Positions 5,976 through 25,768 of a stretch of 64,000 nt of DNA are shown here, piece by piece; positions within the stretch are counted from its first letter, which is position 1; every line of letters begins with the position of its first letter. Both the position numbers and the translations under genes were made by a program. The notes below the pieces were generated by a model. It saw only the letters and a list, made by a program, of their open reading frames with translations. It did no database searches and was not told the origin of the DNA. Location of the stretch: the NCBI GenBank assembly GCA_041691695.1, contig JBEPUG010000001.1, forward strand, positions 23,922-87,921, written 5' to 3'. This DNA comes from Flavobacteriales bacterium. Lineage in GTDB: Bacteria; Bacteroidota; Bacteroidia; Flavobacteriales_F; PHOS-HE28.

Positions 5976-6752
5976 TCAGCGCGAAAGCACTTCCTTGATC
6001 GCCAAAGGCAGGAAGGCCAGATCATCCACGAAGTAGCGACGGAACATACGCCGCGGCTCGGACAGGAAGCGATGCATGAATTCGAGGCCCAAACGCTGAT
6101 AGATCTTCGGTGCGCGCTTCTTCAGGCCAGCATGGAATTCGAAAGAGGCACCCAGCAAGAGGAAGAGGGGAAGTGACCGGCCTTCTGCCCTGAACCGGTC
6201 GATGAGCGCCAATGCCAACCGCTCTTGCTTAGGAAAGCCTAAGCCAAGGAAGACCAGGTCAACAGGATGAGCAATAAGTTCGGCATGGATCTGATCGATC
6301 AACCGCTGCTCGGCACTGCTATCCTCCACAGAATAGAACGGCGGAACGAGATGACGCATGGCAGGCAGCTCATGATGCAACCGTGTCGCGATCGCATCAC
6401 TGCCCAAGACCATGAATACCGGTGCGCCCCTTTTGCACACCCGTTCCCACAAGGGCGGGAAAAGGTCGCTCCCTGCCAAGCGTGCTGGCAACTTCCGGGT
6501 CTTGGTCAAGTTGCTCACCGCCACGATGGGCTGACCATCGGGAAGGATGAACCGGGCATGGCGGATGCGTTCGAACAAAGCGTGATTCGAAGGACGATGC
6601 AGCTTCACGACCTGGTCCACGTTGGGCGTGGATACCAAGGGCAACTCTTCGCCGGAACACGGTGGCAATGGCCAAGTACAGATCTCATTCAGCACCTCAC
6701 CATGGTCCGGCGCGGCGATGAAGGGCATGCCGAACAAGGTGATACGCTTCAT
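5976..6752 (-). CDS. WecB/TagA/CpsF-family glycosyltransferase (GT26)
   Basis: The ATG at 6752 (MKRITLFGMPF) overlaps the upstream stop as TGATG. The motif LGLGFPKQERLA is typical of the family. The longer ORF-track start at 6854 would run into the upstream gene. Confidence 0.8.
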   Translation of the reverse strand: MKRITLFGMPFIAAPDHGEVLNEICTWPLPPCSGEELPLVSTPNVDQVVKLHRPSNHALFERIRHARFILPDGQPIVAVSNLTKTRKLPARLAGSDLFPPLWERVCKRGAPVFMVLGSDAIATRLHHELPAMRHLVPPFYSVEDSSAEQRLIDQIHAELIAHPVDLVFLGLGFPKQERLALALIDRFRAEGRSLPLFLLLGASFEFHAGLKKRAPKIYQRLGLEFMHRFLSEPRRMFRRYFVDDLAFLPLAIKEVLSR

Positions 6753-7768
6753 CACGCTCGCGAGATCCGGCGTTGAAGGGTGTCCACGATATTGCGCATG
6801 CGACTCAGGTTCATCGCAAAAGCACCGGCGAGCTTGAAGGGGAATTTCACCCACATGGCAAGCACCTTTATCGCCGTCGGATGCACTTTCACCTGCTCAT
6901 AACCCAGCTGCTTCATGTGCACGGCGCATGTGCGTTGACAAATGGCGATCTCCACATCCTCCAGATCGCGACGCCATAGGTCCGTCCTATCCTTGCGGAC
7001 ACCGAGGCGCGATAGATCGTCCTTGGCGCTGGAACTTCCCGCATGGGGCACTTCCAACATGCGCTCATCAAATGGGATACCGATGCTCTGGCAGAGTTGC
7101 ATCAGGGTGCCTTGGGGGTCTGTGGTAAGGTCCTCGAATCGCACTTGTACCACGTTCGGGTCATCCTTGAATCGTTCCGCGGCGCGGGCACTGGAGTTCC
7201 AAAGGCTTGCGATAGTATAGGGATGATAGTTCATGCGCAGTCGGCGCACCTCCTTGTCCGGCATGCCTTGATTACCCAATCCCTGTCGCATCCACTTGCG
7301 CTTTTGGGAGAGCATCACGGCCCGGGGATCGCGTTGCATCACCACGACTTTAGCGCCTGGAAATTGTTCCAGTATCTCTCGGATATAGAAAATATCCTGT
7401 GGCGTCTTCTCACACGGGATCGTCTTGTCGTGCAATTCACATTCGTGCGCCATGAAGGCTTTGAAAAGCCCGATCCGGTCCAAGTTTGGGTTTAGCCCAT
7501 CCAGCATGTGGCTTACCTCTTCATCGAATTTCCCAAGCACCACTTTCGCGAAAAAGCCATCGCGTTGGCGGGTGATCATCCGCGACAGCAATGCGGCAGC
7601 CTCCTCGCGCGATGGGATGTTGTCCTTATCGCTTGGCGACCACAGCGTGCCGAAAAAATGTGGCTCGTTGATCGGATGAACGGATGGATGATTGCCCATG
7701 ATCCGCAACATCATGGTGGTCCCACTGCGGGAATTCCCAACAATGAAGATGGTCGGCAAGCTTTTCAT
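6752..7768 (-). CDS. Sulfotransferase family protein (ST-1)
   Basis: MKSLPTIFIVGNSRSGTTMM is a 5'-PSB-like P-loop. VVVMQRDPRAVMLSQKRKW is a 3'-PB-like region. The ATG at 7768 lies directly after the upstream stop at 7770-7772. Confidence 0.8.
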   Translation of the reverse strand: MKSLPTIFIVGNSRSGTTMMLRIMGNHPSVHPINEPHFFGTLWSPSDKDNIPSREEAAALLSRMITRQRDGFFAKVVLGKFDEEVSHMLDGLNPNLDRIGLFKAFMAHECELHDKTIPCEKTPQDIFYIREILEQFPGAKVVVMQRDPRAVMLSQKRKWMRQGLGNQGMPDKEVRRLRMNYHPYTIASLWNSSARAAERFKDDPNVVQVRFEDLTTDPQGTLMQLCQSIGIPFDERMLEVPHAGSSSAKDDLSRLGVRKDRTDLWRRDLEDVEIAICQRTCAVHMKQLGYEQVKVHPTAIKVLAMWVKFPFKLAGAFAMNLSRMRNIVDTLQRRISRA

Positions 7769-7769
7769 A

Positions 7770-8744
7770 TCAAGAGACCGCGTGTGCGGATGGCCACATG
7801 GAACGCAGATCACGCCCTATAAGTTCGGAGAGACTGGCAACATCGTCAGCATAATAACTCCCCAATTCCTGGGCCTGCGCAGGAGACATGGACGGCATCG
7901 ACTCCTTGGAATAGAGGAGATCCTTGAATCCGCCGCGCATGGATCTCGGAACCATGTCCTTCACACGGCGCAATACCCCAGAGCGCACCAGCAACCTGTT
8001 CAGCGTAGCATTTCGGGGCACAGCTGCCTCGTTGAATCGCTCCGATCCATCCAAACTCAACTCCTGGTCAACGCCTAAGCCTCGCAGCACCTCCCGTATC
8101 AGCGCGTTGGGGTCCGCCTTGAGATCTTCCTGGAACAGGATGTGCACTTGGTCCTTGGGGAAGAGTGCGAGGTATCGCTCAACCTGTTCGGCGTATCGGC
8201 CCAAGGCCAAGTATTGATGATTGATGCCCCATCCCTTGTGCGGCAATGCGTCATCGGTGTAAACCTCCTTCAGAAAATCGGGCTCGGTGGTCTTTCCTTC
8301 CCGCAGGTTCATCACATACTGGGACCAGGCCCGTCGCACGGGATCGCGCAGCATGAAGAAGATCTTGGCATCCGGCCTGACCGCATGTATGGCTGCCGCC
8401 GCTGAAGGGGAGATGGCATAGGAGGGGCAAACCTCACCGATCATCTGACCCGAACGGGCCTTGGACAATAATTTGAGATAGTCCTCAGCACGCTCCACAT
8501 GGGCGATATGCACCACCTCGCGCATCCCATTGGCCAAATATCCCGGGAGGTCCAAGCGGACGTCCAGCGCGTATTCCCGGGAGAACTCAGAAGGTCGCAT
8601 GTCAGCCCTCGAGAAGTGGTTCGTCTCCTTTATCGGTCCCAAGTGGACCTGCGCGTGGCGCGCCAAGATGTTATACAGCGCCGTTGTTCCGCCCTTGACC
8701 ACACCGACCACAAAGAAGTCGGGGTAGCGTGTCTGCTCACCCAT
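7770..8744 (-). CDS. Sulfotransferase domain protein (ST-2, heparan-sulfate/aryl sulfotransferase-like fold)
   Basis: The ATG is at 8744 (MGEQTRYPDFFVVGVVKGGTTALYN). The 3'-PB motif is FFMLRDPVRRAWSQY. Confidence 0.85.
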   Translation of the reverse strand: MGEQTRYPDFFVVGVVKGGTTALYNILARHAQVHLGPIKETNHFSRADMRPSEFSREYALDVRLDLPGYLANGMREVVHIAHVERAEDYLKLLSKARSGQMIGEVCPSYAISPSAAAAIHAVRPDAKIFFMLRDPVRRAWSQYVMNLREGKTTEPDFLKEVYTDDALPHKGWGINHQYLALGRYAEQVERYLALFPKDQVHILFQEDLKADPNALIREVLRGLGVDQELSLDGSERFNEAAVPRNATLNRLLVRSGVLRRVKDMVPRSMRGGFKDLLYSKESMPSMSPAQAQELGSYYADDVASLSELIGRDLRSMWPSAHAVS

Positions 8745-9066
8745 GCCGTCGTTTTTCGTTGATCGAACTTTCAATAAATGTCTCCCAAATTTCGGTTCCC
8801 GTGAAAGAGGACACGTCACCTAGCGCGAATTCTTCGGTCACGTTCAACGTATGCAGCGCTCCAAGCGTTGCAACCCGTGGGTGGTGCTCGTGATCTATGG
8901 TCTTCGCAGGTGTCATCGAAAGAATGGATAGCCGGTCCGCATCATCAAAACAGAGGAGGTCTCGCTGCTAATTGCGGACGATTACGGACTCCCGCATGCT
9001 GCAAGAAGTGGTAAAAATAAGCATACCCATTCGCACCGGAACTGCGTATCACCACCAACGCCAGGT

Positions 9067-9080
9067 CCACCACTTGGTGG
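9067..9080. promoter_or_regulatory. 14-nt palindrome CCACCACTTGGTGG in the 385-bp divergent non-coding region of the polysaccharide locus
   Basis: Read directly from the sequence. It lies about 50 nt upstream of the ATG at 9129. Confidence 0.2.
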
Positions 9081-9128
9081 CATGCCTACATTCGAACCCC
9101 GCCGATATAACGTGAAGGAATAAAGACC

Positions 9129-9866
9129 ATGGTCATAAGTGATACACACCGCTTTGTCTTCATCAACCTGCCGCAAACAGCGAGTACAGCTATCCAGAAA
9201 GAGTTGATAGACCAGTATGACGCGCGGGAATTCCTGTTCAAACATGCACTGTATCGGACAGACTATCTGAAGGGCGCCAGCGCTGCACAACAGAAGTACC
9301 GCACCATCTCAGGTCTTCGTGACCCGATGGACATCACCGTAAGTACCTACTTCAAGGTCAAGAGCGACCATGAGAACCGGTACACCGACGCGAAGGCGAA
9401 TAAGATCAAGCATGGCTTTCTGCGGAAGCACATCATGTTCTGGTGGAACAAACGCAGCTATAAGGACATCGTAGGGTCGGAGCTGACCTTCTCGGACTGG
9501 TTCATGAAGAACCATCGCATCCCATATGCGAGTTGGAGCATACTGGACCACAAGCACTTCACGAAAGTGATCCGGTATGAGAACCTCCAAGAGGATTTCG
9601 CCGATGCACTCCGCGTGATGGGCATCCCCCAAAAAAGACCGCTTCCTATCGGGAATAAGACCGCGATCAAGTCCAAGCACTTCACCGCGTATTTCGACAC
9701 CGCAGCGTCTCGGAGTCGTGCGAAATTCGTCTTCGGCCCCTATATGGCCGAGTGGGGCTACACCTTCCCCGCGGAATGGGACAACATCAAGATACCACGC
9801 TCCTCATTCATGCTTTACCGCTTGATCAACCTGGGACGGAAATTCTTTTGGTCCCACCTGCGCTGA
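9129..9866 (+). CDS. Sulfotransferase family protein (ST-3, divergent, carbohydrate-sulfotransferase-like)
   Basis: HRFVFINLPQTASTAIQKEL resembles the F-x-H-x-PK-x-GG-T-S type PAPS loop. A second motif is SGLRDPMDITVSTY. This is the only plus-strand gene in this half of the locus. Confidence 0.65.
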   Translation: MVISDTHRFVFINLPQTASTAIQKELIDQYDAREFLFKHALYRTDYLKGASAAQQKYRTISGLRDPMDITVSTYFKVKSDHENRYTDAKANKIKHGFLRKHIMFWWNKRSYKDIVGSELTFSDWFMKNHRIPYASWSILDHKHFTKVIRYENLQEDFADALRVMGIPQKRPLPIGNKTAIKSKHFTAYFDTAASRSRAKFVFGPYMAEWGYTFPAEWDNIKIPRSSFMLYRLINLGRKFFWSHLR

Positions 9867-9872
9867 GTACCA

Positions 9873-11228
9873 TCAAGGCGCCAAGGCGACCGTCGGATCG
9901 GTGCTAGGCAGCCTGGATGCCAGGCACGCGTAGTAATAGGGAATGGTCAGGAAGAGCAGCACCTGCCCAACGTACTGTGTCAACATGCCGTTCGTGAGGG
10001 AATCCAGTGCCAAGCTCAGTATCATGACCTTGCAGGTGACAAAGAAGACATCATTGTCACGGCCGCGGACCCTCAAGGCGTAACTGGCACCCAAGGGGAA
10101 AAGCATGAAGAGCAGCAAGGTCACGGGGTAGCCATACATGAAGATCAACCCGAGATATCCGATGTCCGCCGGAAAGAAGTAACCCATGAATTTTTCATAA
10201 CCATCGGCCTCCCAGTTATGGTAGATGCGCCCACTGCCACTGATGGGATAGCGATGGATGTATTTATCTGCCAAAGCAGCCTCAGAGACGCGCACGGAAG
10301 GGCCCTCACCTGCCACGGGCCTGCCAATGATCGTGCCGATGGCATCCGCAAACATATTATCGTACTGCTCCACCTTTTTGGGTACGAATACCACCAGCAG
10401 AACAACGCCAAGGATCAAGGGAAGCACGGCCAATAGAACGACCCGGGCGATGCGCCGTAGAGGTACGTTGAAAACGAGCCCCACCGCGACACTGATCAAC
10501 ATTACTGCTATGGAGGAGCGGTCCAGCCTGAAATAGACGAGGTAGAAGGCATACAGAGCGGCCGGGATCAAAAGTGCCCATCGGCGCTGCTGGAAGGCTT
10601 TCACGGAATAGTAGACGGACCCGAAGTACACCAGTGTCATATTGAACCGGTAGTAGGCCACTCCGCCTTTCACGGTGTTGGCACCCGCCAACGGCGTATC
10701 CAAGTAGTTCGCAGGGTTCGTGAAGAGCGATGCGAAATAGAAATACGCCAAGCTCAGACCCGCCACTATAACGATGGACTGTTCCAGTTGGCGAAGGGTG
10801 AAGTACCCCGTCCGCATCAAATAAAGCACCAGAAGACCACCAAAAAGAAGATAGAAATCCTTGAAGGCAAGAACCCCGTCCAAGAGAGGTTGGCCAAACG
10901 CCCGATGTGCGCCGAATGCGGCCCATACGGGTACAAGGGCAAGTACCATTCCGGTGATCTCGAAAGCATGGAAATGCCAATCATTCGAGATCCATCGTTG
11001 AATTGCTCTCCATCCGAGCCATAGAGCGAACAACCCCGAAAGGGCGCCCTCTACCGGGCCCATGATCGCGTAGATGTGACTTACCGTAAAGGTCCGGGTG
11101 ATCATGGCCACTAAAAAGCAAAGCAGCAGCATCCGGCCAAAGGTTGCGCTAGGTTGCGCAGGCTTTGCGCGCCAGGAGGCTTGTCCTTCAGCCAGTGAGG
11201 CGAGTGTTGGCGTGATCACCATTTCCAT
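9873..11228 (-). CDS. wzy: O-antigen polymerase/ligase-like polytopic membrane protein (Wzy candidate)
   Basis: The protein is highly hydrophobic with about 10-12 predicted TM segments and sits in a Wzx/Wza/Wzc locus. The start is uncertain: ATGs at 11228, 11222 and 11132 are all possible. The ORF-track N-terminal 58 aa overlap the upstream gene. Confidence 0.6.
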   Translation of the reverse strand: MEMVITPTLASLAEGQASWRAKPAQPSATFGRMLLLCFLVAMITRTFTVSHIYAIMGPVEGALSGLFALWLGWRAIQRWISNDWHFHAFEITGMVLALVPVWAAFGAHRAFGQPLLDGVLAFKDFYLLFGGLLVLYLMRTGYFTLRQLEQSIVIVAGLSLAYFYFASLFTNPANYLDTPLAGANTVKGGVAYYRFNMTLVYFGSVYYSVKAFQQRRWALLIPAALYAFYLVYFRLDRSSIAVMLISVAVGLVFNVPLRRIARVVLLAVLPLILGVVLLVVFVPKKVEQYDNMFADAIGTIIGRPVAGEGPSVRVSEAALADKYIHRYPISGSGRIYHNWEADGYEKFMGYFFPADIGYLGLIFMYGYPVTLLLFMLFPLGASYALRVRGRDNDVFFVTCKVMILSLALDSLTNGMLTQYVGQVLLFLTIPYYYACLASRLPSTDPTVALAP

Positions 11229-12145
11229 TTGGCAAAAAGGTCTTGGTCCAAGAGGAGCCCTAGGTCGCGAACATCGTTGAAAAACACGTCCTTCAGCCGT
11301 GCGATCTCCTCCGGAGTTGGGCCTTCCGACTTGGACAAGTTCCGGGATTTCACATACTTCCGGGCTTGGCTGCGCTTCTCTTCCGGCACGGCTAGTCGCC
11401 ACAGTGGTCGAACCATTTTCTTAAGAGGGTTGTCCGTAGTGATGAATAGTTGCAGGGCCCGCAGCTTGGCAATACCGGATGGATTATGGGCGGAGTCGGC
11501 ATGCTGCAAGGCGTCAGGATCCGCGCCGGCAAAGGAACATACTTCTCGAAGGAACCCGTGCTGATCGGTCTTCAGGTCCTCGAAAAAGAAGACACGCACA
11601 TTACCAAAGGCTTCCATGTAAGCGCGCACTTGCTCGGCATAGCGGCCCATGGCCACATGGTGCCACATGAAGTCCCAATCTTGTCGGATGCGGTCAGGTT
11701 CAGCAGCCAAAGCCTCTTCGAATCCTAACGGTTCGTGCAGGTCCTTAACAAAGTGCATGTAGGAGGACCATGTTCGCTCGACCGGATCACGCAGTACGAT
11801 GCCAATATGCACATCCTTGCCGAGTGTGCGCAGGATCCGGGGGATGGCGACCTCATGATGATAGAGGTATCCGGTACCGATCTCCACGCAAAGTTTATCG
11901 ACCAGAGGAGCATACAATTGCCTGTAACTCTCCTCGTCATGGATGACCGCATCCTTTGGCCGCTGCATAGGATATGGCAATCGCCCTCCTCCCATGCGGT
12001 CATGGTCGAAGTAGAAGGTCTCCTTGCGGGGGATGCCGATGTCCGGGTGTGCTGCCAGTGCGCGTTCAATGGTGGTAGTGCCCGCCTTTGCCGTGCCTAC
12101 CAAAAGAAAACGAGGAAGTTCACCTGCACCCATTAGTTGCACCAT
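11216..12145 (-). CDS. Sulfotransferase domain protein (ST-4)
   Basis: PRFLLVGTAKAGTTTIERAL and IVLRDPVERTWSSY. An alternative ATG at 12133 would give a TAATG overlap with the upstream stop. Confidence 0.85.
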   Translation of the reverse strand: MVQLMGAGELPRFLLVGTAKAGTTTIERALAAHPDIGIPRKETFYFDHDRMGGGRLPYPMQRPKDAVIHDEESYRQLYAPLVDKLCVEIGTGYLYHHEVAIPRILRTLGKDVHIGIVLRDPVERTWSSYMHFVKDLHEPLGFEEALAAEPDRIRQDWDFMWHHVAMGRYAEQVRAYMEAFGNVRVFFFEDLKTDQHGFLREVCSFAGADPDALQHADSAHNPSGIAKLRALQLFITTDNPLKKMVRPLWRLAVPEEKRSQARKYVKSRNLSKSEGPTPEEIARLKDVFFNDVRDLGLLLDQDLFAKWKW

Positions 12146-15775: not shown

Positions 15776-16027
15776 TAAGCAATTTTCACGTTCTCTTTTT
15801 CGGCGTGCGAAGCTATGCAGACCCACCTGTAAAAGTCCATTCCAGCTTTGGAGAAGGCCTCTTTTTGATACCGCAACCATTCGCCGCTATCGGAGTATGA
15901 ACTGGCCAAGTGGTAAATCGGTAGGTCAACGGTTGACATTCCTGGAAGCCACTCTATTTTCGCGGCCGTTTTGCTCCTTCGAACGTCGATATCACACCAA
16001 GGTTCGACGAAATTTAACCTCGACCGA

Positions 16028-16879
16028 ATGTCAACTGAACGCAAAAAAGCGTGGTTTCTACCGGTAATGAGGCCGGGGGCCTTATTCCAAGCAATAGGAT
16101 TGACCTTGCTGATCGCGGGCGCTAGTGGTTGCGTCAGTAACAGAAAGATCGTCCTCTTCCAGAATCCTGCCGCTTTCAATCCTGACCGATCTCTGGTCGA
16201 TTCCGTTTTCACAGCCAAGAACTCGCCCCCCACGCTTCGTCCCGGTGACGTGATCTCGGTATCCATCGATCATTACCAGTTGACCCAGACCCCTGCGCCC
16301 TCCCCAGTTGGCGACCAAGGAGATGATGGGGCCATGTTCCGTGCCGTTCAACATCCCTACCTGATCGGCTTCACGGTATCCCCCACAGGCATGGTTGACC
16401 TACCCATTCTGGGCATGGTCACTGTTGGTGGTATGACCATTGAAGACGCGCAGGAGTCCATCCGGACCATTGCAAATAATTTTTACGCCTCCCCTTCGGT
16501 GCGCGTTTACATGCTTAACTATACGATCACCGTGCTGGGCGAAGTGAACCGCCCCGGTCGCTACCCCGTCTATGACAACCGCATGAACATCCTGAACGGG
16601 CTGGGCATGGCAGGCGACCTTACCTCCTTGGCCGACCGCAGCCGCATCAGGGTGGTCCGGACCCGGGACGGTAATAACCATCTGTTCCATCTGGACCTGT
16701 TGGATGAGCATGTGCTTACCGACAGCGCTTTCGTGTTACAGCCGAACGACGTCATCATTGTGGACCCGCTCCGCAGACGCAAATTCTCCGATGGAAGGGA
16801 CACCCAGAACGTGGTCAACATCATGGCCTTGTTGATCTCCATCGCGACCTTGATCGTTACAATAAACATCCACAAGTGA
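16028..16879 (+). CDS. wza: Polysaccharide export outer-membrane lipoprotein (Wza-like, Poly_export + SLBB)
   Basis: Lipobox LLIAGASGC, plus PGDVISVSI, LPILGMVTVGGMTIEDAQESI and VLGEVNRPGRYPV. Confidence 0.85.
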   Translation: MSTERKKAWFLPVMRPGALFQAIGLTLLIAGASGCVSNRKIVLFQNPAAFNPDRSLVDSVFTAKNSPPTLRPGDVISVSIDHYQLTQTPAPSPVGDQGDDGAMFRAVQHPYLIGFTVSPTGMVDLPILGMVTVGGMTIEDAQESIRTIANNFYASPSVRVYMLNYTITVLGEVNRPGRYPVYDNRMNILNGLGMAGDLTSLADRSRIRVVRTRDGNNHLFHLDLLDEHVLTDSAFVLQPNDVIIVDPLRRRKFSDGRDTQNVVNIMALLISIATLIVTINIHK

Positions 16880-16892
16880 TCAACTCTTGGCA

Positions 16893-19190
16893 ATGCAAAT
16901 GACCAACTCGACAGGCCTTGTTGACACGGACCTGAAGGCCTTTGTGCGCCACTATTTGCGCTCGTGGCCGTTGCTGCTCGCCGCTGCAGCCGCTTTATTC
17001 GTGATCGTGATCCTTCTGGTCATATTCGTGCCCCCGCACTATGCGGCCACGAGCAGCGTCTTGATCGAGACGCCCATGCGTTACGACGACCCCAACCGCC
17101 TGGTACAAGACCCCGATCGCACCTCTACGACTACGGACAAGAATTATTACACGAACGAAAAGCTCAGGATCACCTCGCAACCGATCGTCGCTTCCGTGGT
17201 GAAGCAACTGGGTCTGACAACGGAATACTATCGGTGGGGATTGATCGACAGGCCGCTCTATCCTGTCAAACCGATCATCATGGAGGTGGACAGTTCGAGC
17301 ATGCCTAGCCAGGATGCCATTCCGAACGACATCACTTTCTATGTTACCCGTGTGGATGGCAATACCTTCCATTTGGAAGGTGATGGAAAATATGGCCCAA
17401 CACGTCGTGAGATCGATGTGGACCGCAAGGAGCATTGGGGGGAATGGTTCATGCTTGACAGCTTAAGGCTGCGTGTACAACAAGCGCCAGTTGAGGAACG
17501 GGACAGCACAGCGACCACTTATGGATTCAAGATCCGGGATCCTCGGGATGTTGCATTGGACCTCATAAGCTCCATCACCTCCGATTTTGTGGAGACCGAC
17601 GCCACCACGGTGCTACTGAACTATACCAGCGCGCCGGCCGCACGGACGATCGACATACTCAATGCTGTATCTCAAGCCTATGTAAATACCCATATGTCGG
17701 AGCGCAGCCAGACCTTGGATGCTACAATTGCCCAAGTCCAAGCGGAGATCAACCACAATCTGGCACTCCTCGATGCGAACAGCAATGCTGTGGAATTATT
17801 CCGGACAGCTCAGAGCGTCACCGACGTGGACCATGAGAAGGTGATGCTGATGGAACGTAGCGATGGTTTGGATAAGCAGAGGGAGACGTTGACCGTAAAG
17901 GACAAGTATTACAGCTATCTGCAAAAACTTCTATCGGAACAGAGCACCAGCGACCAACCAATCAGCCCCAAGGCATTCGGGATCCAAGACCCTATCCTCA
18001 ACGATATGACCGAGCAGCTTGTATCGCTGCAATCCGACATAGCGGCCTTGAAAAACGATGGGAAGACCGCACATCCCTACTATACCCAATTGACCCAGCG
18101 ATTGGATCAACAGCGGACGAACATCCTAAAATCCGTGGAAGGATTCAAGGAAACGAACAACATGATGCTGGCGAATATCAACCAGCAATATAGCAAGCTC
18201 GCTAGCCAACAGAATGCCATCCCGAAGACGGAACGTGAACTGGATGACAAGTCGCGCGATGCCAAAACCTTGGATAGCCAGCATGGTGACCTGCTCACTC
18301 GCTTGGCCAACCTCCGCATTGCACGCGCGGCCATCGCGCCGGAGGTACGCTTGATCACACCTGCCTACCTCACCAGTACCGACCCCTACTTCCCCAACAT
18401 TGTGATCCTCTTGGTGGTGGCGGTCCTTTTGAGTTTGATCTTTCCCTTGGGCTATCTGGTGATCAAAGGATTGTTCAGTGACCGGGTGCAAAGCATCAAG
18501 GATGTTGCGCGTGCCCTTCCCAACGCACCTTTGTTAGGCCAAATACCTTTCACTGGCCTCACCGACCCCGATGCATTGATCGCCCGTCCAGTTTCCCAGG
18601 CATTCATCGAGACCTCCAAACTGGCCCGTGGCCTTGAACTGATGAAGCCCTCAGTGGGCCCGGAGGTCAGCGTAATCAGCAATGCCAACACCAGTGGAAG
18701 CGGTCGCACGTTCACACACATGTTGGCCGCCGTGCTCGCAGCCCGTGGCAATAAGACATTGATCATCGATACCCTCTCTGATGAAGCAGCGTCTGCACCG
18801 GTCAACCGTCTCGTGATCCAGCCGTATCATCAGGACTTGGACAAGGCAATACTTACGGGCAATCCAGGAAGCTGGGCCTCTGACATTTTCAGGCCGGAAG
18901 GCTATTCGCAGATCCTTATCATCGGCCCCAGCGCTAGCGCCCTGCCCGCTTGGACCGCCTTACCCTTTGCTGACCACGCTTTGGTGATCTGCGAGATCGG
19001 AAAGACCGGTTACGCCACCTTGGAGGAATTGGCGCTGGCGCAGCTAAGTGGCAAATTACCAGAACTGGGCTTGGTGGTGAATAAGGTCTTGGATGATCGG
19101 CTACCATGGTTCGGATTCTTCAGCACGAAAAAGGAAAAACGGCTGAGCTTTTGGGGCGGTATAAAGTACAATTGGCGGCGTGCGGTTTGA
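16893..19190 (+). CDS. wzc: Wzc/GumC-like chain-length determinant protein with a degenerate C-terminal BY-kinase-like domain
   Basis: It has two TM segments flanking a long coiled periplasmic region. The C-terminal P-loop-like region reads SNANTSGSGRTFTH (Arg in place of the Walker A Lys), TLIIDTLSDE and ILIIGPSASA, and there is no terminal Tyr cluster. The ATG is at 16893; the ORF track starts at a TTG at 16887. Confidence 0.75.
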   Translation: MQMTNSTGLVDTDLKAFVRHYLRSWPLLLAAAAALFVIVILLVIFVPPHYAATSSVLIETPMRYDDPNRLVQDPDRTSTTTDKNYYTNEKLRITSQPIVASVVKQLGLTTEYYRWGLIDRPLYPVKPIIMEVDSSSMPSQDAIPNDITFYVTRVDGNTFHLEGDGKYGPTRREIDVDRKEHWGEWFMLDSLRLRVQQAPVEERDSTATTYGFKIRDPRDVALDLISSITSDFVETDATTVLLNYTSAPAARTIDILNAVSQAYVNTHMSERSQTLDATIAQVQAEINHNLALLDANSNAVELFRTAQSVTDVDHEKVMLMERSDGLDKQRETLTVKDKYYSYLQKLLSEQSTSDQPISPKAFGIQDPILNDMTEQLVSLQSDIAALKNDGKTAHPYYTQLTQRLDQQRTNILKSVEGFKETNNMMLANINQQYSKLASQQNAIPKTERELDDKSRDAKTLDSQHGDLLTRLANLRIARAAIAPEVRLITPAYLTSTDPYFPNIVILLVVAVLLSLIFPLGYLVIKGLFSDRVQSIKDVARALPNAPLLGQIPFTGLTDPDALIARPVSQAFIETSKLARGLELMKPSVGPEVSVISNANTSGSGRTFTHMLAAVLAARGNKTLIIDTLSDEAASAPVNRLVIQPYHQDLDKAILTGNPGSWASDIFRPEGYSQILIIGPSASALPAWTALPFADHALVICEIGKTGYATLEELALAQLSGKLPELGLVVNKVLDDRLPWFGFFSTKKEKRLSFWGGIKYNWRRAV

Positions 19191-19199
19191 TAACGATGG

Positions 19200-20411: not shown

Positions 20412-20415
20412 GAAC

Positions 20416-21810
20416 ATGCTTTTCAATTCCTTCCAATACATCCTTTTCCTGCCGTTGGTGCTGGTGGTCTTCCACCTGATGCCAAAGAAGTATCGCTGGA
20501 TCATGCTGTTGATCGTCAGCTACTACTTCTACATGTGCTGGAAGCCGGCCTTCGCCATCCTCATGTTCATATCCACCATCGTGGATTATTGGGCGGGTAT
20601 CGGCATGGCCAACACGACCGATAAACGCAAACGGAAGGGGTGGATGATGATGAGCTTGTGCGTAAATCTGGGCATGCTCTTCTTCTTCAAGTACTTGAAC
20701 TTCCTCACCTACAATGTGGAGGTGATGATGGCGAAATTCAATATCTTCTATGACAGTCCCATCCTGCATATCATACTGCCGGTCGGGATCTCTTTCTACA
20801 CCTTCCAGACCTTGAGTTATACACTCGATGTCTACAAGGGGAAGGCTCCGGCAGAGCGGCATTTCGGTTATTTCGCATTGTACGTTTCCTACTTCCCGCA
20901 ATTGGTGGCCGGTCCTATCGAGCGGCCAGGCCACTTGATCCCACAGTTGCATAGTCCGCCTGCCTTGACAAAGGATGACGTGCGATACGGCATCAACAAG
21001 ATCCTGCTGGGCTACTTCAAGAAAGTGGTAGTTGCAGACAATTTGGCCCTTTACGTGGACCAGATGTTCGCGCACGTACCGGGTGGGACGGGGCTCCAAT
21101 ACTATGTGGCCTCGGTCATGTTCATCATCCAGTTGTTCGCTGACTTCTCTGGATATACGGACATCGCCATAGGTTCTGCCAGGTTGATGGGAGTGCGATT
21201 GCAGGAAAACTTCAACCGCCCCTTTTTCACCACCAGCCTCAGCCGGTTTTGGGCCCGATGGCATATGTCCCTCACCACCTGGATCCGCGATTATCTCTTC
21301 AAGCCATTGATCTTCAGTTATCGCGATTGGGCGTGGGCGGTGACCATCTTCGTCTTCGTGGTGATCGGCCTGTGGCACGGTGCCGCATGGACGTTCGTGC
21401 TCTTCGGCTTTTTCAATGGTGTTATCATGGTGCTTCAGAATATGTACCAAGGCATCAAGCCGCTGAGGGAATTCAACCGTTCCCGCGTGGGCAAGTTGAT
21501 CTTGGCTATCTGGAACTTCAACCTGCTTGCGCTACTGGGCGTATTCTTCCGATCCGGGAACGTGACCGATGCCTTCGAGATCATCAAACGCATCTGCTTG
21601 GATACCCGGCTAAAGGCCAGCGACCTGCGATCAGCTTTCATGGCCGAGATGTACATCGGCATGATCCTCTTGGTACTGCTTGCCGTGACCACCTTGTTCA
21701 ATAGGGAGCTTCGTTTCCGCTGGAACTGGATGTACATTACCGTGATGCTAGTGTTGATCTTCCTGATGGGCTCCGATTCCAGTAACCAGTTCATCTACTT
21801 CCAGTTCTGA
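20416..21810 (+). CDS. MBOAT-family membrane O-acyltransferase (AlgI/DltB-like)
   Basis: ISFYTFQTLSYTLDVYKG, plus the conserved His region FWARWHMSLTTWIRDYLF. The protein is polytopic. Confidence 0.85.
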   Translation: MLFNSFQYILFLPLVLVVFHLMPKKYRWIMLLIVSYYFYMCWKPAFAILMFISTIVDYWAGIGMANTTDKRKRKGWMMMSLCVNLGMLFFFKYLNFLTYNVEVMMAKFNIFYDSPILHIILPVGISFYTFQTLSYTLDVYKGKAPAERHFGYFALYVSYFPQLVAGPIERPGHLIPQLHSPPALTKDDVRYGINKILLGYFKKVVVADNLALYVDQMFAHVPGGTGLQYYVASVMFIIQLFADFSGYTDIAIGSARLMGVRLQENFNRPFFTTSLSRFWARWHMSLTTWIRDYLFKPLIFSYRDWAWAVTIFVFVVIGLWHGAAWTFVLFGFFNGVIMVLQNMYQGIKPLREFNRSRVGKLILAIWNFNLLALLGVFFRSGNVTDAFEIIKRICLDTRLKASDLRSAFMAEMYIGMILLVLLAVTTLFNRELRFRWNWMYITVMLVLIFLMGSDSSNQFIYFQF

Positions 21811-21813
21811 GCC

Positions 21814-22836
21814 ATGCGCACACTACTGAGATATTCCGCCTTTTTCATCATCGCGTTCGTGGCGATAGCGTTGTGCTTGGACCAGTGGATGGCGAAAAAG
21901 ATCATCTTTCGGGACCCGAATTCCAACCAAAGCAAAATGCTGCGGCTGGTCTCCTCAACCGATCCGTTGGAGATCCCGATCTTCGGTAGCTCCAAGGCAC
22001 GCAGTGCATTCATCCCGGACACCTTGGGTCCAACGGTGTTCAACTACGGGATGGACAAGTGCAACTATGACGTGATCGAGTTCGAGTTGGCCCATGAACT
22101 GGCGAAGCCCAGCACGGCTCCGATCATCATCGAATTCAACCATCGCTTCTTCATCCATGAACCGGAGCATACCATCGACGCGGCCACCTTCGTGCCCATC
22201 ATTGATAAGCCTGGCGTACGTGATTACCTGAAGAAGAATGGCCGGGATGAATTGCGATGGTCGATACCCGGCGTGCGCTATTACGGCAGCATCCTCACCT
22301 TTATCCGCAGCGCTTCCCGGAAGGAGACCGGACAACGCAAACATATTTCCAAGGGAGGACTTTTCATCGACAATCCTGCCTCCCCTCGAGTGCTGAAAAG
22401 CCAAGTGGATGCACGGGACAATGAGATCGCTGAGCAGCACGACCTGCTATTCCGGAAAACACATGTGGAAGAGGCGATCTCCGCACAAGGACTTGCTCGA
22501 TTGCAAGGGCTTGACGCACTTCTCTTGTTCTCCGAACCCAAGGATCGCATCGAACTTTTTGAGGCCCAGTTGGCCCAACGTCCGGACCGTCCCATCCTGA
22601 TCGTCTATACCCCGCAGCACCCCAGCGAGCTCAAGGGCATGGCCAACTATGACCGGGTCTTGGCCAAGTTCAAGGAATGGGAGACGCGATTCCCCAATGT
22701 GCACGTCTACAACTATTCCCACGTCCGGCTACCGGACACGGACTTCAAGAACATCGCGCACCTCAACACTGCCGGGGCCAGGGTCCTCTCCGGAATGCTG
22801 AAACACGATGCACAGCAGTACCTTTCAAACCCGTGA
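21814..22836 (+). CDS. Membrane-anchored SGNH/DltD/AlgJ-like partner of the MBOAT acyltransferase (putative)
   Basis: An N-terminal TM helix is followed by IPIFGSSKARSAF (a GSS-type nucleophile motif) and a C-terminal IAHLNTAGARVL (a D..H-like motif). The gene starts 3 nt after the MBOAT stop. Confidence 0.45.
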   Translation: MRTLLRYSAFFIIAFVAIALCLDQWMAKKIIFRDPNSNQSKMLRLVSSTDPLEIPIFGSSKARSAFIPDTLGPTVFNYGMDKCNYDVIEFELAHELAKPSTAPIIIEFNHRFFIHEPEHTIDAATFVPIIDKPGVRDYLKKNGRDELRWSIPGVRYYGSILTFIRSASRKETGQRKHISKGGLFIDNPASPRVLKSQVDARDNEIAEQHDLLFRKTHVEEAISAQGLARLQGLDALLLFSEPKDRIELFEAQLAQRPDRPILIVYTPQHPSELKGMANYDRVLAKFKEWETRFPNVHVYNYSHVRLPDTDFKNIAHLNTAGARVLSGMLKHDAQQYLSNP

Positions 22837-22910
22837 AGAGGAGCCGGAGCAAAATCCCGACCTTTACGACTCTCCTCGCTAACCTCGATACTGACGCTGA
22901 AGAGCAGCAC

Positions 22911-23519
22911 ATGCCCTCCCAGATCTCCAATATCCATCCAGTGACCGATCGCTTGTTGCAGCGAACGGACAAAGAAGCGTTCCTTGGCCAATCCGGCCGG
23001 GCGATCTGGATGACGGGATTGAGCGGTAGCGGCAAGAGTACTATTGCCATTGAATTGGAGCGGAAACTTCAACACGCAGGCAGATATGCAGTGGTGCTGG
23101 ACGGTGACAATGTCCGCACAGGCATCAACAGCGATCTTGGTTTCAGCGAAGAGGACCGCACGGAGAACATTCGGCGGATCGCCGAGATCGCGAAACTTTT
23201 CGTGCAGAATGGCGCAGTGGTCATTTGCACTTTCGTGAGTCCCACCATCGCTATCCGTAAACAAGCGCGCACCATCATCGGCGACAAGGACTTCTTGGAG
23301 GTATTCGTGGATACTCCTATCGAGGAGTGTGAGCGCCGCGATGTGAAGGGCCTTTACGCAAAGGCCAGACGCGGCGAGATAAAGGACTTCACGGGCATCA
23401 GTTCCCCGTTCGAGGCACCGCCTGCGCCTTCTCTGCGATTACCCACCATCGGCCGAAGCGAGCAGGATACCGCTGATGAACTCTTCCATTTTGTAACAAC
23501 CAGTGTCTTACGCAACTGA
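22911..23519 (+). CDS. cysC: Adenylylsulfate (APS) kinase
   Basis: The ATG is at 22911 (MPSQISNIHPV). The P-loop is WMTGLSGSGKSTIA, with VLDGDNVR also present. The ORF-track start at 22677 is an extension overlapping the previous gene. Confidence 0.9.
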   Translation: MPSQISNIHPVTDRLLQRTDKEAFLGQSGRAIWMTGLSGSGKSTIAIELERKLQHAGRYAVVLDGDNVRTGINSDLGFSEEDRTENIRRIAEIAKLFVQNGAVVICTFVSPTIAIRKQARTIIGDKDFLEVFVDTPIEECERRDVKGLYAKARRGEIKDFTGISSPFEAPPAPSLRLPTIGRSEQDTADELFHFVTTSVLRN

Positions 23520-23524
23520 ACGTC

Positions 23525-24430
23525 ATGCATTCATACCGACTTACACATCTGAAGGAACTCGAGAGCGAGAGCATGCAGATCCTGCGTGAAGTGGCCGCCC
23601 AGTTCGACAACCCCACCCTGCTCTTCAGTGGTGGAAAGGACAGCATTCTTTGCTTCCACTTGGCACGCAAAGCATTCTTCCCAGGCAAGGTGCCATTTCC
23701 GCTGCTCCATGTCGACACAGGCCACAATTTCATTGAGACGATCAACTTCCGGGACAGTCTGGTCGCCGAGTATGGTGCCACGTTGCAGGTGGGGAGCGTA
23801 CAGGACAGCATCGACCAAGGCAAGGTCCAAGAGGAGAAGGGCTTTTACGCCAGCCGCAATAAGCTGCAAACCGTGACCTTGTTGGACGCCATCGCTCACT
23901 ACAAGGTCGATTGCGCCATAGGTGGGGCGCGACGCGACGAGGAAAAGGCCCGAGCAAAGGAGCGCGTCTTCAGCCATCGCGATGAGTTCGGCCAATGGGA
24001 CCCGAAGAACCAGCGTCCTGAACTGTGGAATCTCTACAACGGGCGCAAACGGCCAGGTGAACACTTCCGCGCATTCCCGATCAGCAACTGGACCGAGATG
24101 GACGTGTGGCAGTATATCCTCTTGGAGAACATCCCGATCCCCAACATCTATTTCAGTCATGAACGCGATGTGTTCCACCGCGACGGTGTGATCTATGCTT
24201 ACGCGGATATCATGAACCTGAAGCCGGATGAAAAGGTGGAACGCATGCGCGTGCGTTTCCGCACCATCGGTGACATGACCTGCACCGGAGCGGTCGATTC
24301 CCCCGCCTCCACCTTGGAGGAGATCATTGAAGAGGTGGCATCGACCCGCACCACAGAACGTGGCACCCGCATGGACGACAAGCGTGGTGAAGCCGCTATG
24401 GAGGACCGCAAAAAAGAAGGCTATTTCTAG
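23525..24430 (+). CDS. cysD: Sulfate adenylyltransferase subunit 2
   Basis: PP-loop LLFSGGKDSIL, and the C-terminal ERGTRMDDKRGEAAMEDRKKEGYF is typical of CysD. Confidence 0.92.
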   Translation: MHSYRLTHLKELESESMQILREVAAQFDNPTLLFSGGKDSILCFHLARKAFFPGKVPFPLLHVDTGHNFIETINFRDSLVAEYGATLQVGSVQDSIDQGKVQEEKGFYASRNKLQTVTLLDAIAHYKVDCAIGGARRDEEKARAKERVFSHRDEFGQWDPKNQRPELWNLYNGRKRPGEHFRAFPISNWTEMDVWQYILLENIPIPNIYFSHERDVFHRDGVIYAYADIMNLKPDEKVERMRVRFRTIGDMTCTGAVDSPASTLEEIIEEVASTRTTERGTRMDDKRGEAAMEDRKKEGYF

Positions 24431-24493
24431 ATCCAGATCCAGCATGCCCCCGGATATCGAGAGGGCCATGATGGCATAACAGAACCATTGAAC

Positions 24494-25768
24494 ATGAAGG
24501 AAGAAAGATCACGGGGCTATCTCGACATGGACCTCCTACGCTTCACCACGGCCGGCAGCGTGGATGATGGGAAGAGCACCCTTATCGGCCGCTTGTTATA
24601 TGACAGCCGCGCCATTTTCGACGACCAGATGGAAGCTGTGGAGCGCGCCAGTGCCAAGCGCGGAAGCGGTGATGTGGACCTTAGTCTCCTCACGGACGGC
24701 CTACGCGCGGAACGCGAACAAGGGATCACCATTGATGTGGCCTACCGCTACTTCGCCACGCCACGGCGAAAATTCATCATCGCTGACACGCCGGGCCATA
24801 TCCAGTATACCCGTAACATGGTCACCGGAGCGAGCACGGCAAACCTGGCCATCATCCTTGTGGACGCCCGCAAAGGGATCCAAGAACAGACCAACCGGCA
24901 CGCTTTCATAGCATCCTTGCTGGGCATACCCCACGTGGTGTTTTGCGTGAACAAAATGGACCTTGTGGACTACGATGAGAATGTCTTCAAGTCCATACAA
25001 AGCGAACTGGAGGATTTCAGCAGCAAGCTTGAGACGCGCGACCTGAATTTCATCCCCATCAGTGCATTGAAGGGCGACAACGTAGTGAACCGAAGCACCC
25101 GGATGGACTGGTATCAAGGCACTACGCTGATGTACCTGCTGGAGAATATCCACATCGCGGGCGATCTTAACCACATCGATCGCCGATTCCCTGTACAGAC
25201 GGTGATCCGCCCAATGACCGAGCAATGGCATGACTTCCGGGGATTCGCGGGGCAGGTCACCGGCGGCATATTCCGCAAGGGCGATGAGATCCAGATCCTT
25301 CCCAGCGGATTTCAAAGCACGATCAAATCGATCCATCTAGGCGAACGTGAAGTGGAGGAGGCCTTCGCTCCGCAAAGTGTGGTAATGACCTTGACGGATG
25401 AGATCGATATCAGCCGCGGCGATATGATCGTCAGCCCGAACAACCTCCCGCAAACAAGTCAGGACATCGACGTGATGCTCTGTTGGCTCAATGAGCGACC
25501 CTTGCAACCGAATGGTAAATACGCTGTGAAGCATACGACGCGGGATGCCCGTTGCATGATAAAGGAGGTGAAGTACAAGATGGACATCAACACCTTGCGT
25601 AAGAACGAGGACGACAAGGTCATCGGCATGAACGATATCGGCCGGGTCCTTCTGCGCACCACGGTGCCCTTGAACTTCGACAATTACGGGCGCAATCGCA
25701 ACGCAGGCAGCCTGATCCTCATCGACGAATCCACCAATGAAACGGTGGCGGCAGGGATGATCGTGTGA
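24494..25768 (+). CDS. cysN: Sulfate adenylyltransferase subunit 1 (GTPase)
   Basis: G1 AGSVDDGKSTLIGRL, G3 DTPGH and G4 NKMD. The ATG is at 24494; the ORF track starts at a TTG at 24488. Confidence 0.92.
   Translation: MKEERSRGYLDMDLLRFTTAGSVDDGKSTLIGRLLYDSRAIFDDQMEAVERASAKRGSGDVDLSLLTDGLRAEREQGITIDVAYRYFATPRRKFIIADTPGHIQYTRNMVTGASTANLAIILVDARKGIQEQTNRHAFIASLLGIPHVVFCVNKMDLVDYDENVFKSIQSELEDFSSKLETRDLNFIPISALKGDNVVNRSTRMDWYQGTTLMYLLENIHIAGDLNHIDRRFPVQTVIRPMTEQWHDFRGFAGQVTGGIFRKGDEIQILPSGFQSTIKSIHLGEREVEEAFAPQSVVMTLTDEIDISRGDMIVSPNNLPQTSQDIDVMLCWLNERPLQPNGKYAVKHTTRDARCMIKEVKYKMDINTLRKNEDDKVIGMNDIGRVLLRTTVPLNFDNYGRNRNAGSLILIDESTNETVAAGMIV

Follow-up and report, generated by a model that had tools for sequence, protein, structure and literature searches.

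A conserved sulfotransferase-rich locus of uncultured Flavobacteriales predicted to encode a Wzx/Wzy-dependent pathway for a sulfated, O-acylated polysaccharide

Sulfated polymers resembling glycosaminoglycans (GAGs) have been detected repeatedly in activated, granular and anammox sludge by dye-based and chemical assays (PMC10483923; PMC7356697). In the granular-sludge literature the producers and pathways of this material are described as unknown, and BLAST searches with reference sulfotransferases have largely failed (PMC10483923). Which bacteria, then, carry genes that could sulfate an exported polysaccharide, and what kind of polymer would such genes make? The question is raised by a locus at positions 5976-25768 of a stretch of 64,000 nucleotides, referred to here as the window, from a Flavobacteriales contig (JBEPUG010000001.1). 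An open reading frame (ORF) listing combined with Pfam and NCBIfam profile searches identified 18 closely packed genes in this locus, five of them belonging to sulfotransferase families and here called ST_A to ST_E (Table 1). Judging from what these genes encode, we think it likely that the locus encodes a self-contained pathway of the Wzx/Wzy-dependent type, leading to a capsule or exopolysaccharide that is both sulfated and O-acylated. That its product is a sulfated polysaccharide destined for export also appears probable, whereas a product as dense in sulfate as the ratio of genes suggests appears much less so.

Read in the direction of transcription, the minus strand carries the initiating transferase (Bac_transf), the flippase Wzx, ST_E, ST_D and a Wzy-like polymerase, and then ST_B, ST_A and a glycosyltransferase of family GT26. 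These minus-strand genes make up two transcription units, split by ST_C, which stands alone on the plus strand in the middle of the locus and is convergent with the Wzy-like gene. The remaining plus-strand genes form an operon that encodes Wza, a Wzc-like protein, a GT4 glycosyltransferase, a membrane O-acyltransferase (MBOAT), a 340-residue partner protein, CysC, CysD and CysN. In the profile searches, every gene that had been listed in an earlier note on this DNA was found where that note had placed it and on the same strand. The tight packing on which the note had remarked is likewise real: GT26 and ST_A overlap in CATCA at 6750-6754 (TGATG on the minus strand), and ST_D and ST_E overlap in CATTA at 12131-12135 (TAATG on the minus strand). 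Further overlaps join ST_D to the Wzy-like gene (13 nt) and Wzx to ST_E (11 nt). Gaps on the plus strand are 3-13 nt as far as CysD, with no more than 5 nt between the acylation pair, cysC and CysD, and 57 nt separate CysD from CysN; if its GTG start is used, CysC overlaps the gene before it. Several of the longest ORFs begin too far upstream; for these, the likely starts were taken from gene calls made on orthologous contigs and from the DNA sequence itself. Exact look-ups of the initiating transferase, the MBOAT and ST_E gave no recorded protein, in at least one case owing to a start codon other than that of the recorded gene. The GT26 start at 6752 follows the gene call of a 258-residue orthologue, the ATG of the initiating transferase was read at 15775-15773, the start of ST_B possibly lies as far upstream as 8819, and CysC is called as a 228-residue gene on an identical contig. 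With five sulfotransferase-family genes packed into 6.3 kb and the same order of genes seen again in eight other species-level genomes, the arrangement is far beyond chance.

The evidence for that recurrence comes from a scan of one genome per GTDB species with an alignment of the initiating transferase, which gave fifteen loci, followed by tblastn with all window proteins; relatives were compared over 21-kb loci ending at CysN. The 17 genes from GT26 to CysD have the same order and orientation in eight species-level genomes (L004-L007, L009-L011 and L015). CysN is present at the fetched edge of all eight colinear loci, cut in some, and a contig fragment (L008) has the same arrangement. Identities in the colinear loci span 40-89%, lowest for Wzc and Wzy (40-49%) and highest for CysD (83-87%) and CysN (79-89%). 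Beyond GT26 the loci differ: five have DeoC there, like the window, and another has transporter genes; the block is therefore kept as a unit. The other loci among L012-L018, from Parabacteroides, a gammaproteobacterium and others, share the transferase only and were set aside.

If the locus serves sulfation, then sulfate activation and transfer should both be readable from its genes. All three activities needed to make 3'-phosphoadenosine 5'-phosphosulfate (PAPS), namely the ATP sulfurylase formed by CysD and CysN and the adenosine 5'-phosphosulfate (APS) kinase CysC, are encoded in the plus-strand operon. The claim that the locus has its own PAPS-synthesis genes thus holds in the physical sense, and the window contains neither cysH nor cysIJ. 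A contrasting arrangement is seen in a Bacteroidales locus (L017, 1115-6387), where an ordinary cysQ - cysC - sulfate ATP-binding cassette (ABC) transporter operon encodes a binding protein, two permeases and an ATPase. We considered this locus as a parallel, its cysC being 5 kb from the transferase gene, and rejected it as an ordinary sulfate operon with unrelated genes in between.

The sulfotransferases themselves were compared over their two PAPS-binding motifs. The 5'-phosphosulfate-binding loop, P/G-x-K/R-x-G-T/S-T/S, is present in ST_A (GNSRSGTT), ST_B (GVVKGGTT), ST_D (GTAKAGTT) and ST_E (GAAKSGTS) and not in ST_C. The 3'-phosphate-binding motif, R-D/N-P ... S, is present in all five: RDPRAVMLS in ST_A, RDPVRRAWS in ST_B, RDPMDITVS in ST_C, RDPVERTWS in ST_D and RDPVERAYS in ST_E. 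The earlier note had counted five sulfotransferases; on these motifs the set reads as four canonical enzymes, which align over both, and one divergent member, ST_C, which has the second motif and lacks the lysine of the first. Over the full length of each protein, the best match in the Protein Data Bank (PDB) is 3RNL, an uncharacterised bacterial sulfotransferase from structural genomics, for ST_B (E 6e-37), ST_D (E 5e-46) and ST_E (E 7e-35). Behind it rank the heparan sulfate (HS) 3-O-sulfotransferases (3-OSTs) and NDST1: 3-OST-3A1, 3-OST-1, 3-OST-5 and NDST1 for ST_B, HS 3-OSTs for ST_D, and 3-OST-3A1 and NDST for ST_E. The three proteins match the HS 3-OSTs and the sulfotransferase domain of NDST1 at E 1e-6 to 1e-12, behind 3RNL; their kinship with GAG sulfotransferases is one of superfamily level only. 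The 3RNL-like family to which ST_D belongs numbers 17,915 representative proteins at E<=1e-3; it is therefore not the enzyme type that is new, it is the assembly of genes. For ST_A, 432 homologues score at E<=1e-5; in the PDB it has weak matches to the polyketide sulfotransferase domains of CurM/OLS and to the tyrosylprotein sulfotransferase TPST.

ST_B, ST_D and ST_E are only 24-35% identical in pairwise comparisons, and ST_A and ST_C are unrelated to those three by sequence, while each of the five has a one-to-one orthologue at 55-83% identity in related genomes. Low identity between paralogues next to high identity between orthologues indicates five non-redundant enzymes and not recent duplicates. 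In a simple hydropathy scan, no hydrophobic segment was found in any of the five, in GT26 or in GT4. The sulfotransferase genes alternate with those for Wzx, Wzy and GT26, and stop codons overlap the start codons that follow.

The genes for chain assembly and export follow the logic of a Wzx/Wzy-type pathway, as the earlier note had proposed: the initiating transferase, Wzx and Wza are recognised by their profiles, the Wzc-like protein is sub-threshold and the Wzy_C match is weak. The initiating enzyme, a large polyprenyl-phosphate hexose-1-phosphate transferase (PHPT), scores 343 against TIGR03025 (cut-off 295.6) and 373 against the WcaJ model, under the cut-off of 410.75. Wzx has at least eight hydrophobic segments. 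GT26 reaches 90.7 bits against TIGR00696 (cut-off 69), and its nearest solved structure is the ManNAc transferase TagA (E 2e-15); the family also includes glucosyltransferases such as GumM. The enzyme probably adds the second or third sugar. GT4 has no match in the PDB by sequence. PHPT, GT26 and GT4 are the only sugar-adding enzymes at the locus, in agreement with the earlier note, and the same is true of every colinear relative. No further glycosyltransferase is found in any colinear locus, from which a short repeat unit is predicted, although this is not proof.

The Wzc-like protein has two hydrophobic segments, fitting a co-polymerase topology, and its Wzz and GNVR matches are sub-threshold, with GNVR carried by its orthologues. 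Its C-terminal domain (window 18486-19187) matches CbiA (E 0.006) and AAA_31, both below threshold, and has SGSGRT in place of the Walker A motif GxxGxGK[ST], a stretch that varies among orthologues. The Walker-A lysine and a tyrosine-rich tail are absent from the window protein and from all 9 orthologues compared. With both features missing in ten sequences, the protein looks like a conserved pseudokinase.

Downstream of GT4, the MBOAT gene is followed by that for the 340-residue protein, which has no Pfam or NCBIfam match (Pfam at E up to 5 gives only noise) and whose family comprises just 39 homologue clusters, none with a functional name. Its AlphaFold model is confident (mean predicted local distance difference test score, pLDDT, 91). 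By Foldseek, the best matches are the DltD structures 3bma, 6pfx, 6o93 and 7dxm (E ~5e-6, probability 1.0, TM ~0.42), followed by SGNH esterases and the C-terminal domain of OatA, and the SGNH-like nature that the earlier note had suspected is thereby supported. In the family alignment FGSS (57-60, with S59 and S60), N77 and H316 are invariant and D308 is nearly so, and the hydropathy scan shows an N-terminal hydrophobic anchor. On the modelled fold, we take the protein to be a predicted extracytoplasmic acyl-transfer partner of the MBOAT. The pair resembles DltB/DltD, AlgI/AlgJ/AlgX and PatA/PatB in that an MBOAT directly precedes a protein of SGNH-like fold with a single anchor, and in that this partner has a G-S-S motif near its N-terminus and, towards its C-terminus, a conserved Asp and a conserved His; it differs in that the partner has no sequence similarity to the Pfam models of DltD, AlgX or SGNH proteins. 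As DltD is the top structural match, we weighed D-alanylation as the function of the pair and rejected it, DltA and DltC being absent from this locus and from all colinear loci.

These genes suggest the following pathway. CysD/CysN and CysC would turn sulfate into PAPS in the cytoplasm, and the large phosphoglycosyl transferase would load hexose-1-phosphate onto undecaprenyl phosphate. GT26 and GT4 would then add sugars until a short repeat unit, probably a trisaccharide, is complete, and four to five soluble cytoplasmic sulfotransferases, old paralogues that are separately conserved, would sulfate distinct hydroxyls of the lipid-linked unit. Wzx would flip the anionic unit, the Wzy-like protein would polymerise it, and on the periplasmic side the MBOAT and its membrane-anchored DltD/SGNH-like partner would O-acylate the polymer, which the kinase-dead Wzc-like co-polymerase and Wza would export. 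Sulfation is put before flipping because PAPS is found only in the cytoplasm and the enzymes lack hydrophobic or export-type segments; this order is a deduction, as in the case of synechan, the exopolysaccharide discussed below. What we infer in this scheme is the acceptor, the sequence of events, how many sulfates each repeat bears, which acyl group is added and whether the polymer is a capsule or a free exopolysaccharide.

Several observations weigh against the scheme. The window Wzy-like protein matches Wzy_C with only 17-18 bits (E 0.003), under the Pfam cut-off of 31.7, and among its orthologues the match is unmarked in L001 and weak in L002. The window has no nucleotide-sugar genes, no CysQ and no sulfate-uptake genes. 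All eight colinear carriers are uncultured. Glycosyltransferases encoded elsewhere could enlarge the repeat unit, and we know of no characterised precedent for the flipping and polymerisation of a unit with four or five sulfates. A further difficulty is ST_C. Across 28 family members R64, P66, V71 and S72 of its 3'-phosphate-binding motif are invariant, and its AlphaFold model has a pLDDT of 90. In the position of the 5'-phosphosulfate-binding loop, however, it reads P-Q-T-A-S-T, and lysine is missing from this loop in all homologues, which mostly have Gln, in a few cases Arg and, in a Chitinophagales homologue, Leu. The top Foldseek matches are nearly all sulfotransferases, yet they are weak (E 0.05-1, TM 0.3-0.4), and there is no match to the PDB by sequence. 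On these grounds we do not count ST_C as a confirmed sulfotransferase; it may be inactive or have a different function.

The alternative that survives best accepts a sulfated polysaccharide and gives up the dense trisaccharide. Glycosyltransferases from outside the locus would lengthen the repeat, or the sulfotransferases would be alternative, substoichiometric or, in the case of ST_C, inactive, and cysCDN may be an ordinary operon that happens to adjoin. We regard this as possible, if doubtful. ST_C lacks its catalytic-loop lysine, as the alternative would have it, yet in most colinear genomes none of the other four is as well conserved (ST_C orthologues have 61-80% identity to the window protein). 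Distant relatives have two sulfotransferases for the same three types of sugar-adding enzyme; in the colinear genomes, however, all five are kept one-to-one at 55-83%. The gene counts for synechan fit an 8-sugar unit with 2 sulfates, whereas no colinear locus has a further glycosyltransferase. CysD and CysN, at 79-89%, are far more conserved than the remaining locus, as expected of housekeeping enzymes, and no CysQ or sulfate transporter accompanies them in the window; but cysCDN is joined to the operon in 8/8 colinear relatives, and in an ordinary Bacteroidales arrangement cysC goes with cysQ and a sulfate ABC transporter.

How far the dense version can be pressed is a separate matter. The heavily sulfated trisaccharide of the earlier note agrees with the gene counts but was overstated, as it was drawn from those counts and glycosyltransferases elsewhere are possible. 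In its strongest form, the polymer of the PHOS-HE28 Flavobacteriales of activated sludge would have the charge density of heparin, with four to five sulfate esters and an acyl group per approximately three sugars, would receive its sulfate while still on the lipid carrier, ahead of flipping, and would be a major source of the "sulfated glycosaminoglycan-like" signal in the extracellular polymers of activated and granular sludge. We think that unlikely.

Less probable still is a sulfated glycan that remains attached and is not released, whether O-antigen-like on lipid A-core, as an anionic lipopolysaccharide (LPS) that anchors cargo of the type IX secretion system, or linked to protein. In Bacteroidota, Wzx/Wzy-type machinery does serve anionic LPS (Porphyromonas A-LPS) and protein glycans, sprA lies about 1 kb beyond CysN with genes for type IX cargo near it, and the Wzc-like protein has no working kinase domain. 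However, a Wza of the outer-membrane polysaccharide export (OPX) family and a co-polymerase of the PCP-2a-like type lie in the operon and are kept in every relative, and this combination is a signature of free-polymer export. Nor was a separate ligase of the WaaL type found, the sole Wzy_C-like protein being in the position expected of the polymerase. That all or most of the sulfotransferases act on small metabolites, lipids or peptides, and are in a polysaccharide locus by accident, is very improbable: gut bacteria including Bacteroides do have PAPS-dependent sulfotransferases for small molecules such as steroids (PMC13449962), the nearest solved relatives of ST_A are the polyketide (CurM/OLS) and tyrosylprotein enzymes and no function has been characterised for the very large 3RNL-like family, but the genes alternate with, and are translationally coupled to, those for Wzx, Wzy and GT26, ST_B - ST_A - GT26 adjoins GT4, MBOAT, partner, Wzc and Wza even in Bacteroidota of 38-40% GC, and among characterised proteins ST_B, ST_D and ST_E are closest to carbohydrate sulfotransferases.

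An exported sulfated polysaccharide, which we favour over these alternatives, has a characterised relative in synechan, the Wzx/Wzy-dependent sulfated exopolysaccharide made by the xss genes of Synechocystis sp. PCC 6803 (PMC8205485). In both cases sulfotransferase genes are found among those for glycosyltransferases, flippase and polymerase of a Wzx/Wzy pathway, the sulfotransferases are of distinct subfamilies, and the lipid-linked unit is presumed to be sulfated while in the cytoplasm. ST_A has cyanobacterial homologues of 45% identity, which are next to a second sulfotransferase, a gene for a MurJ-family flippase and a GT4. The differences are considerable. The xss genes encode 8 glycosyltransferases and 2 sulfotransferases, for 8 sugars and 2 sulfates, whereas this locus has 3 sugar-adding enzymes and 5 sulfotransferase-family proteins. 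PAPS and cysC go unmentioned in the xss paper (PMC8205485), whereas cysCDN is in the operon here. The xss system has the regulators XssQ/R/S and an OPX gene elsewhere, whereas this locus has no regulator and has Wza in its operon. The MBOAT/DltD-like acylation pair belongs to this locus, and phylum and habitat differ.

Sulfotransferases and PAPS genes have also been described together. The capsule cluster of Vibrio sp. KMM 8419 has sulfotransferases and a second copy of cysDNC, and its authors propose the combination as a hallmark of sulfated loci (PMC11641403); the capsule loci of Cobetia are related to it (PMC11766843). The earlier note had held that the known cases are organised differently, which no longer holds in full, as the Vibrio cluster already unites sulfotransferases and cysDNC. 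The Vibrio polymer has an acyl substituent, and one is predicted from the genes here. Export by the Vibrio cluster depends on an ABC transporter (Kps), and its ~80 genes include rhamnose genes, many glycosyltransferases and 3 sulfotransferases in separate regions. The present locus, in contrast, is compact, with 18 genes, is Wzx/Wzy-dependent, has more sulfotransferases than glycosyltransferases and is vertically conserved across a family, where the Vibrio cluster is strain-specific.

Is the product GAG-like, as the earlier note had suggested? With the HS sulfotransferases (3-OST-1/3/5 and NDST1) and 3RNL, ST_B, ST_D and ST_E share the fold, PKxGTx and RDPxxRxxS. A K-E-x-x-x-F stretch in the three proteins presumably corresponds, at the level of a motif, to the catalytic-glutamate segment of the 3-OSTs. 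The animal HS enzymes differ in that identity to them is low and over partial length, in that they are type II membrane proteins of the Golgi lumen whereas those here are soluble and cytoplasmic, and in that they act on a completed GAG chain whereas the predicted acceptor here is a lipid-linked repeat unit. Neither the 18 genes nor the colinear loci include a GAG-type synthase, genes to supply hexosamine or uronic acid, or an N-deacetylase. The GAG-like label is not upheld, as it lacks backbone and N-deacetylase genes and its only link is the kinship of ST_B, ST_D and ST_E to HS 3-OST/NDST. A putative sulfated-GAG cluster has been described in Pontiella sulfatireligans F21, with one sulfotransferase, eight GT2/GT4 enzymes, an aminotransferase and dye-based evidence of N-sulfation (PMC7356697). 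That organism, too, is an environmental non-cyanobacterium with a sulfotransferase inside an exopolysaccharide cluster, proposed as a source of a sulfated GAG-like exopolymer; the present locus differs in its five sulfotransferases, in having no amino-sugar genes and in being known from genes alone.

In the literature on sulfated exopolysaccharides, on granular and activated sludge (including the epsSMASH preprint) and on PHOS-HE28, we found no description of such a Bacteroidota locus, in line with the earlier note, which had not recognised it as a characterised system. The Bacteroidetes metagenome-assembled genomes (MAGs) of a Shark Bay mat study were reported to have no PF13469 sulfotransferase gene. 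Clusters that combine sulfotransferases with PAPS genes are already known, and it is this particular locus that appears undescribed. It is distinguished by an excess of sulfotransferases over glycosyltransferases, a PAPS module in the operon, an orphan DltD-like partner and carriers that are uncultured Flavobacteriales and include at least one activated-sludge bacterium.

The eight colinear carriers are Flavobacteriales or "Bacteroidetes" MAGs with a local GC of 55-64%. One of them, Hirt_18-Q3-R61-65_MAXAC.366 (JADJVC), was recovered from Danish activated sludge, is 99% complete and is the sole carrier that could be placed, being classified as f__PHOS-HE28, g__PHOS-HE28 and, in SILVA, "NS9 marine group"; the family name PHOS-HE28 occurs 85 times in the Danish MAG table (PMC8012365 supplement). 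PHOS-HE28 is described as a high-GC group from wastewater and activated sludge, and GTDB-Tk puts the cultured Cryomorpha ignava and Luteibaculum oceani inside or beside it (PMC7214798). The window species is not among the GTDB representatives. Nearest to it are a short contig in run SRR27874556, which is identical, a Flavobacteriales MAG with an ST_A fragment of 99% identity and a metagenome contig from the Joint Genome Institute (JGI) whose proteins are 73-83% identical.

More distant Bacteroidota of low GC (38-40%) have a smaller core with two sulfotransferases. In L023 it reads Wza - Wzc - GT4 - MBOAT - partner - ST_B - ST_A - GT26, and in L019, a Flavobacteriales contig of 40% GC, the same core genes are in two divergent blocks together with Wzy. 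There (15923-17945), Wza is adjoined by a CitMHS/Na_sulph_symp (SLC13-type) transporter and an Inositol_P protein resembling CysQ, the phosphatase of 3'-phosphoadenosine 5'-phosphate (PAP), which by their families would be an alternative way of coupling the polysaccharide genes of the core to the supply of sulfate and the removal of PAP. A Chitinophagales MAG (L020, 10001-13040) has only a trio, ST_A-like, GT4 and ST_C-like, outside an export locus, and this suggests a mobile sub-module of a glycosyltransferase and two sulfotransferases. The simplest history starts from a two-sulfotransferase core, to which three sulfotransferases and cysCDN were added in the line leading to the colinear carriers.

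In L002 (7383-8987) and L003, an additional gene for a 534-residue protein is called between the orthologues of ST_C and ST_B, and L004, L005 and L006 have a gap of its size there. At the end of its signal sequence the protein has a lipobox-like cysteine; it also has a Pro/Thr/Ser-rich linker, and by eye its LGNEHY and ITEWN motifs resemble glycoside hydrolases of clan GH-A. It has no Pfam match, and its PDB matches, to designed "Pizza" repeat proteins, are spurious. From these features, it may be an enzyme that trims the polymer.

With this locus, the lineage becomes a concrete candidate for the bacteria behind the sulfated polymers of activated sludge, which so far lack an explanation. The locus supplies a named lineage (one placed MAG, PHOS-HE28), a marker set of 18 genes and five sulfotransferase query sequences for metatranscriptomic and metaproteomic searches, and with all three the question of the sludge producer becomes directly testable. 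PHOS-HE28 is well represented among the high-quality MAGs from Danish activated sludge. Soluble bacterial carbohydrate sulfotransferases with their own PAPS module are sought for the production of animal-free sulfated polysaccharides and, if the dense reading is true, five regiospecific soluble sulfotransferases would be a bacterial toolkit for enzymatic polysaccharide sulfation. If the gene ratio mirrors the chemistry, Wzx and Wzy would handle a multiply sulfated repeat, which would widen their known transport range. The orphan family of DltD-like partners (39 clusters, no Pfam model) gains a functional context.

Table 1. Genes and intergenic regions of the locus, in window coordinates (lengths in amino acids, aa, or nucleotides, nt)
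Feature	Position	Strand	Basis
GT26 (WecG/TagA/CpsF family), 258 aa	5976..6752	minus	Glyco_tran_WecG, E 1e-33
ST_A, Sulfotransfer_3 type, 338 aa	6752..7768	minus	PF13469, 104 bits
ST_B, 3RNL / HS 3-OST-like, ~324 aa	7770..8744	minus	PF13469, 72 bits; PF00685, 57 bits
Intergenic region ST_B/ST_C (divergent), ~385 nt	8745..9128		sequence read; 534-aa gene inserted here in some relatives
ST_C, divergent Sulfotransfer_2-family member, 245 aa	9129..9866	plus	PF03567, 30.4 bits (cut-off 22)
Wzy-like polymerase, 451 aa	9873..11228	minus	weak Wzy_C; eight hydrophobic segments
ST_D, 3RNL / HS 3-OST-like, 305 aa	11216..12133	minus	PF00685, 48 bits
ST_E, 3RNL / HS 3-OST-like, 304 aa	12133..13047	minus	PF00685, 23.2 bits (cut-off 22)
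Wzx flippase, 443 aa	13037..14368	minus	Polysacc_synt, 63.5 bits; also MatE and MurJ matches
Initiating polyprenyl-phosphate hexose-1-phosphate transferase (large PHPT, WcaJ/WbaP type), 459 aa	14396..15775	minus	Bac_transf, 199 bits
Divergent intergenic region, initiating transferase/Wza	15776..16027		sequence read
Wza-type outer-membrane polysaccharide export protein, 283 aa	16028..16879	plus	Poly_export, SLBB, SLBB_2, above cut-offs
Wzc-like co-polymerase with degenerate C-terminal kinase-like domain, 765 aa	16893..19190	plus	weak Wzz, GNVR
GT4 glycosyltransferase, 403 aa	19200..20411	plus	Glyco_trans_1_4, 85 bits
MBOAT membrane O-acyltransferase, 464 aa	20416..21810	plus	PF03062, 77.6 bits
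DltD-like / SGNH-fold partner of MBOAT, 340 aa	21814..22836	plus	AlphaFold and Foldseek; N-terminal membrane anchor
CysC, APS kinase	22833..23519	plus	APS_kinase, 217 bits; start GTG 22833 or ATG 22908
CysD, sulfate adenylyltransferase small subunit	23525..24430	plus	PAPS_reduct domain, 148 bits
CysN, sulfate adenylyltransferase GTPase subunit	24488..25768	plus	GTP_EFTU, 153 bits; GTP-eEF1A_C; no fused kinase domain

The locus lies in ordinary chromosome, with DnaE and DeoC on one side and GcvH, SprA, RuvA, RuvB, cytochrome oxidase, an alternative-complex-III-like set, IF-2 and NusA on the other. GC dips slightly, to 0.52-0.56 across the locus from about 0.57-0.59 in the flanks. A mobile island was considered and rejected in view of the housekeeping flanks, the slight GC dip and the colinearity of the block in eight other species-level genomes. 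Scans of the window for tRNA genes and Rfam families found no element, and profile searches of the locus and its flanks found no regulator or two-component genes. Between CysN and gcvH, window 25770-26286 (~500 nt) holds short overlapping ORFs only, and the one scanned (25770-26180, 136 aa, minus strand) has no Pfam match; this gap may be non-coding, and the terminator of the operon could lie in it. About 1 kb beyond CysN, SprA, the translocon of type IX secretion, is encoded as a protein of 2417 aa at window 26717-33970 on the minus strand, and genes for Por_Secre_tail cargo lie near it at 34924-37325. Upstream of dnaE, at window 608-1525 on the plus strand, is a gene for a 305-aa BRO-N domain protein; this domain is often associated with phages or mobile elements. 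A respiratory block on the minus strand (window 44143-55770), unrelated to the locus, encodes cytochrome c oxidase I and II, c-type cytochromes and a set of NrfD, molybdopterin/iron-sulfur and multihaem proteins resembling alternative complex III.

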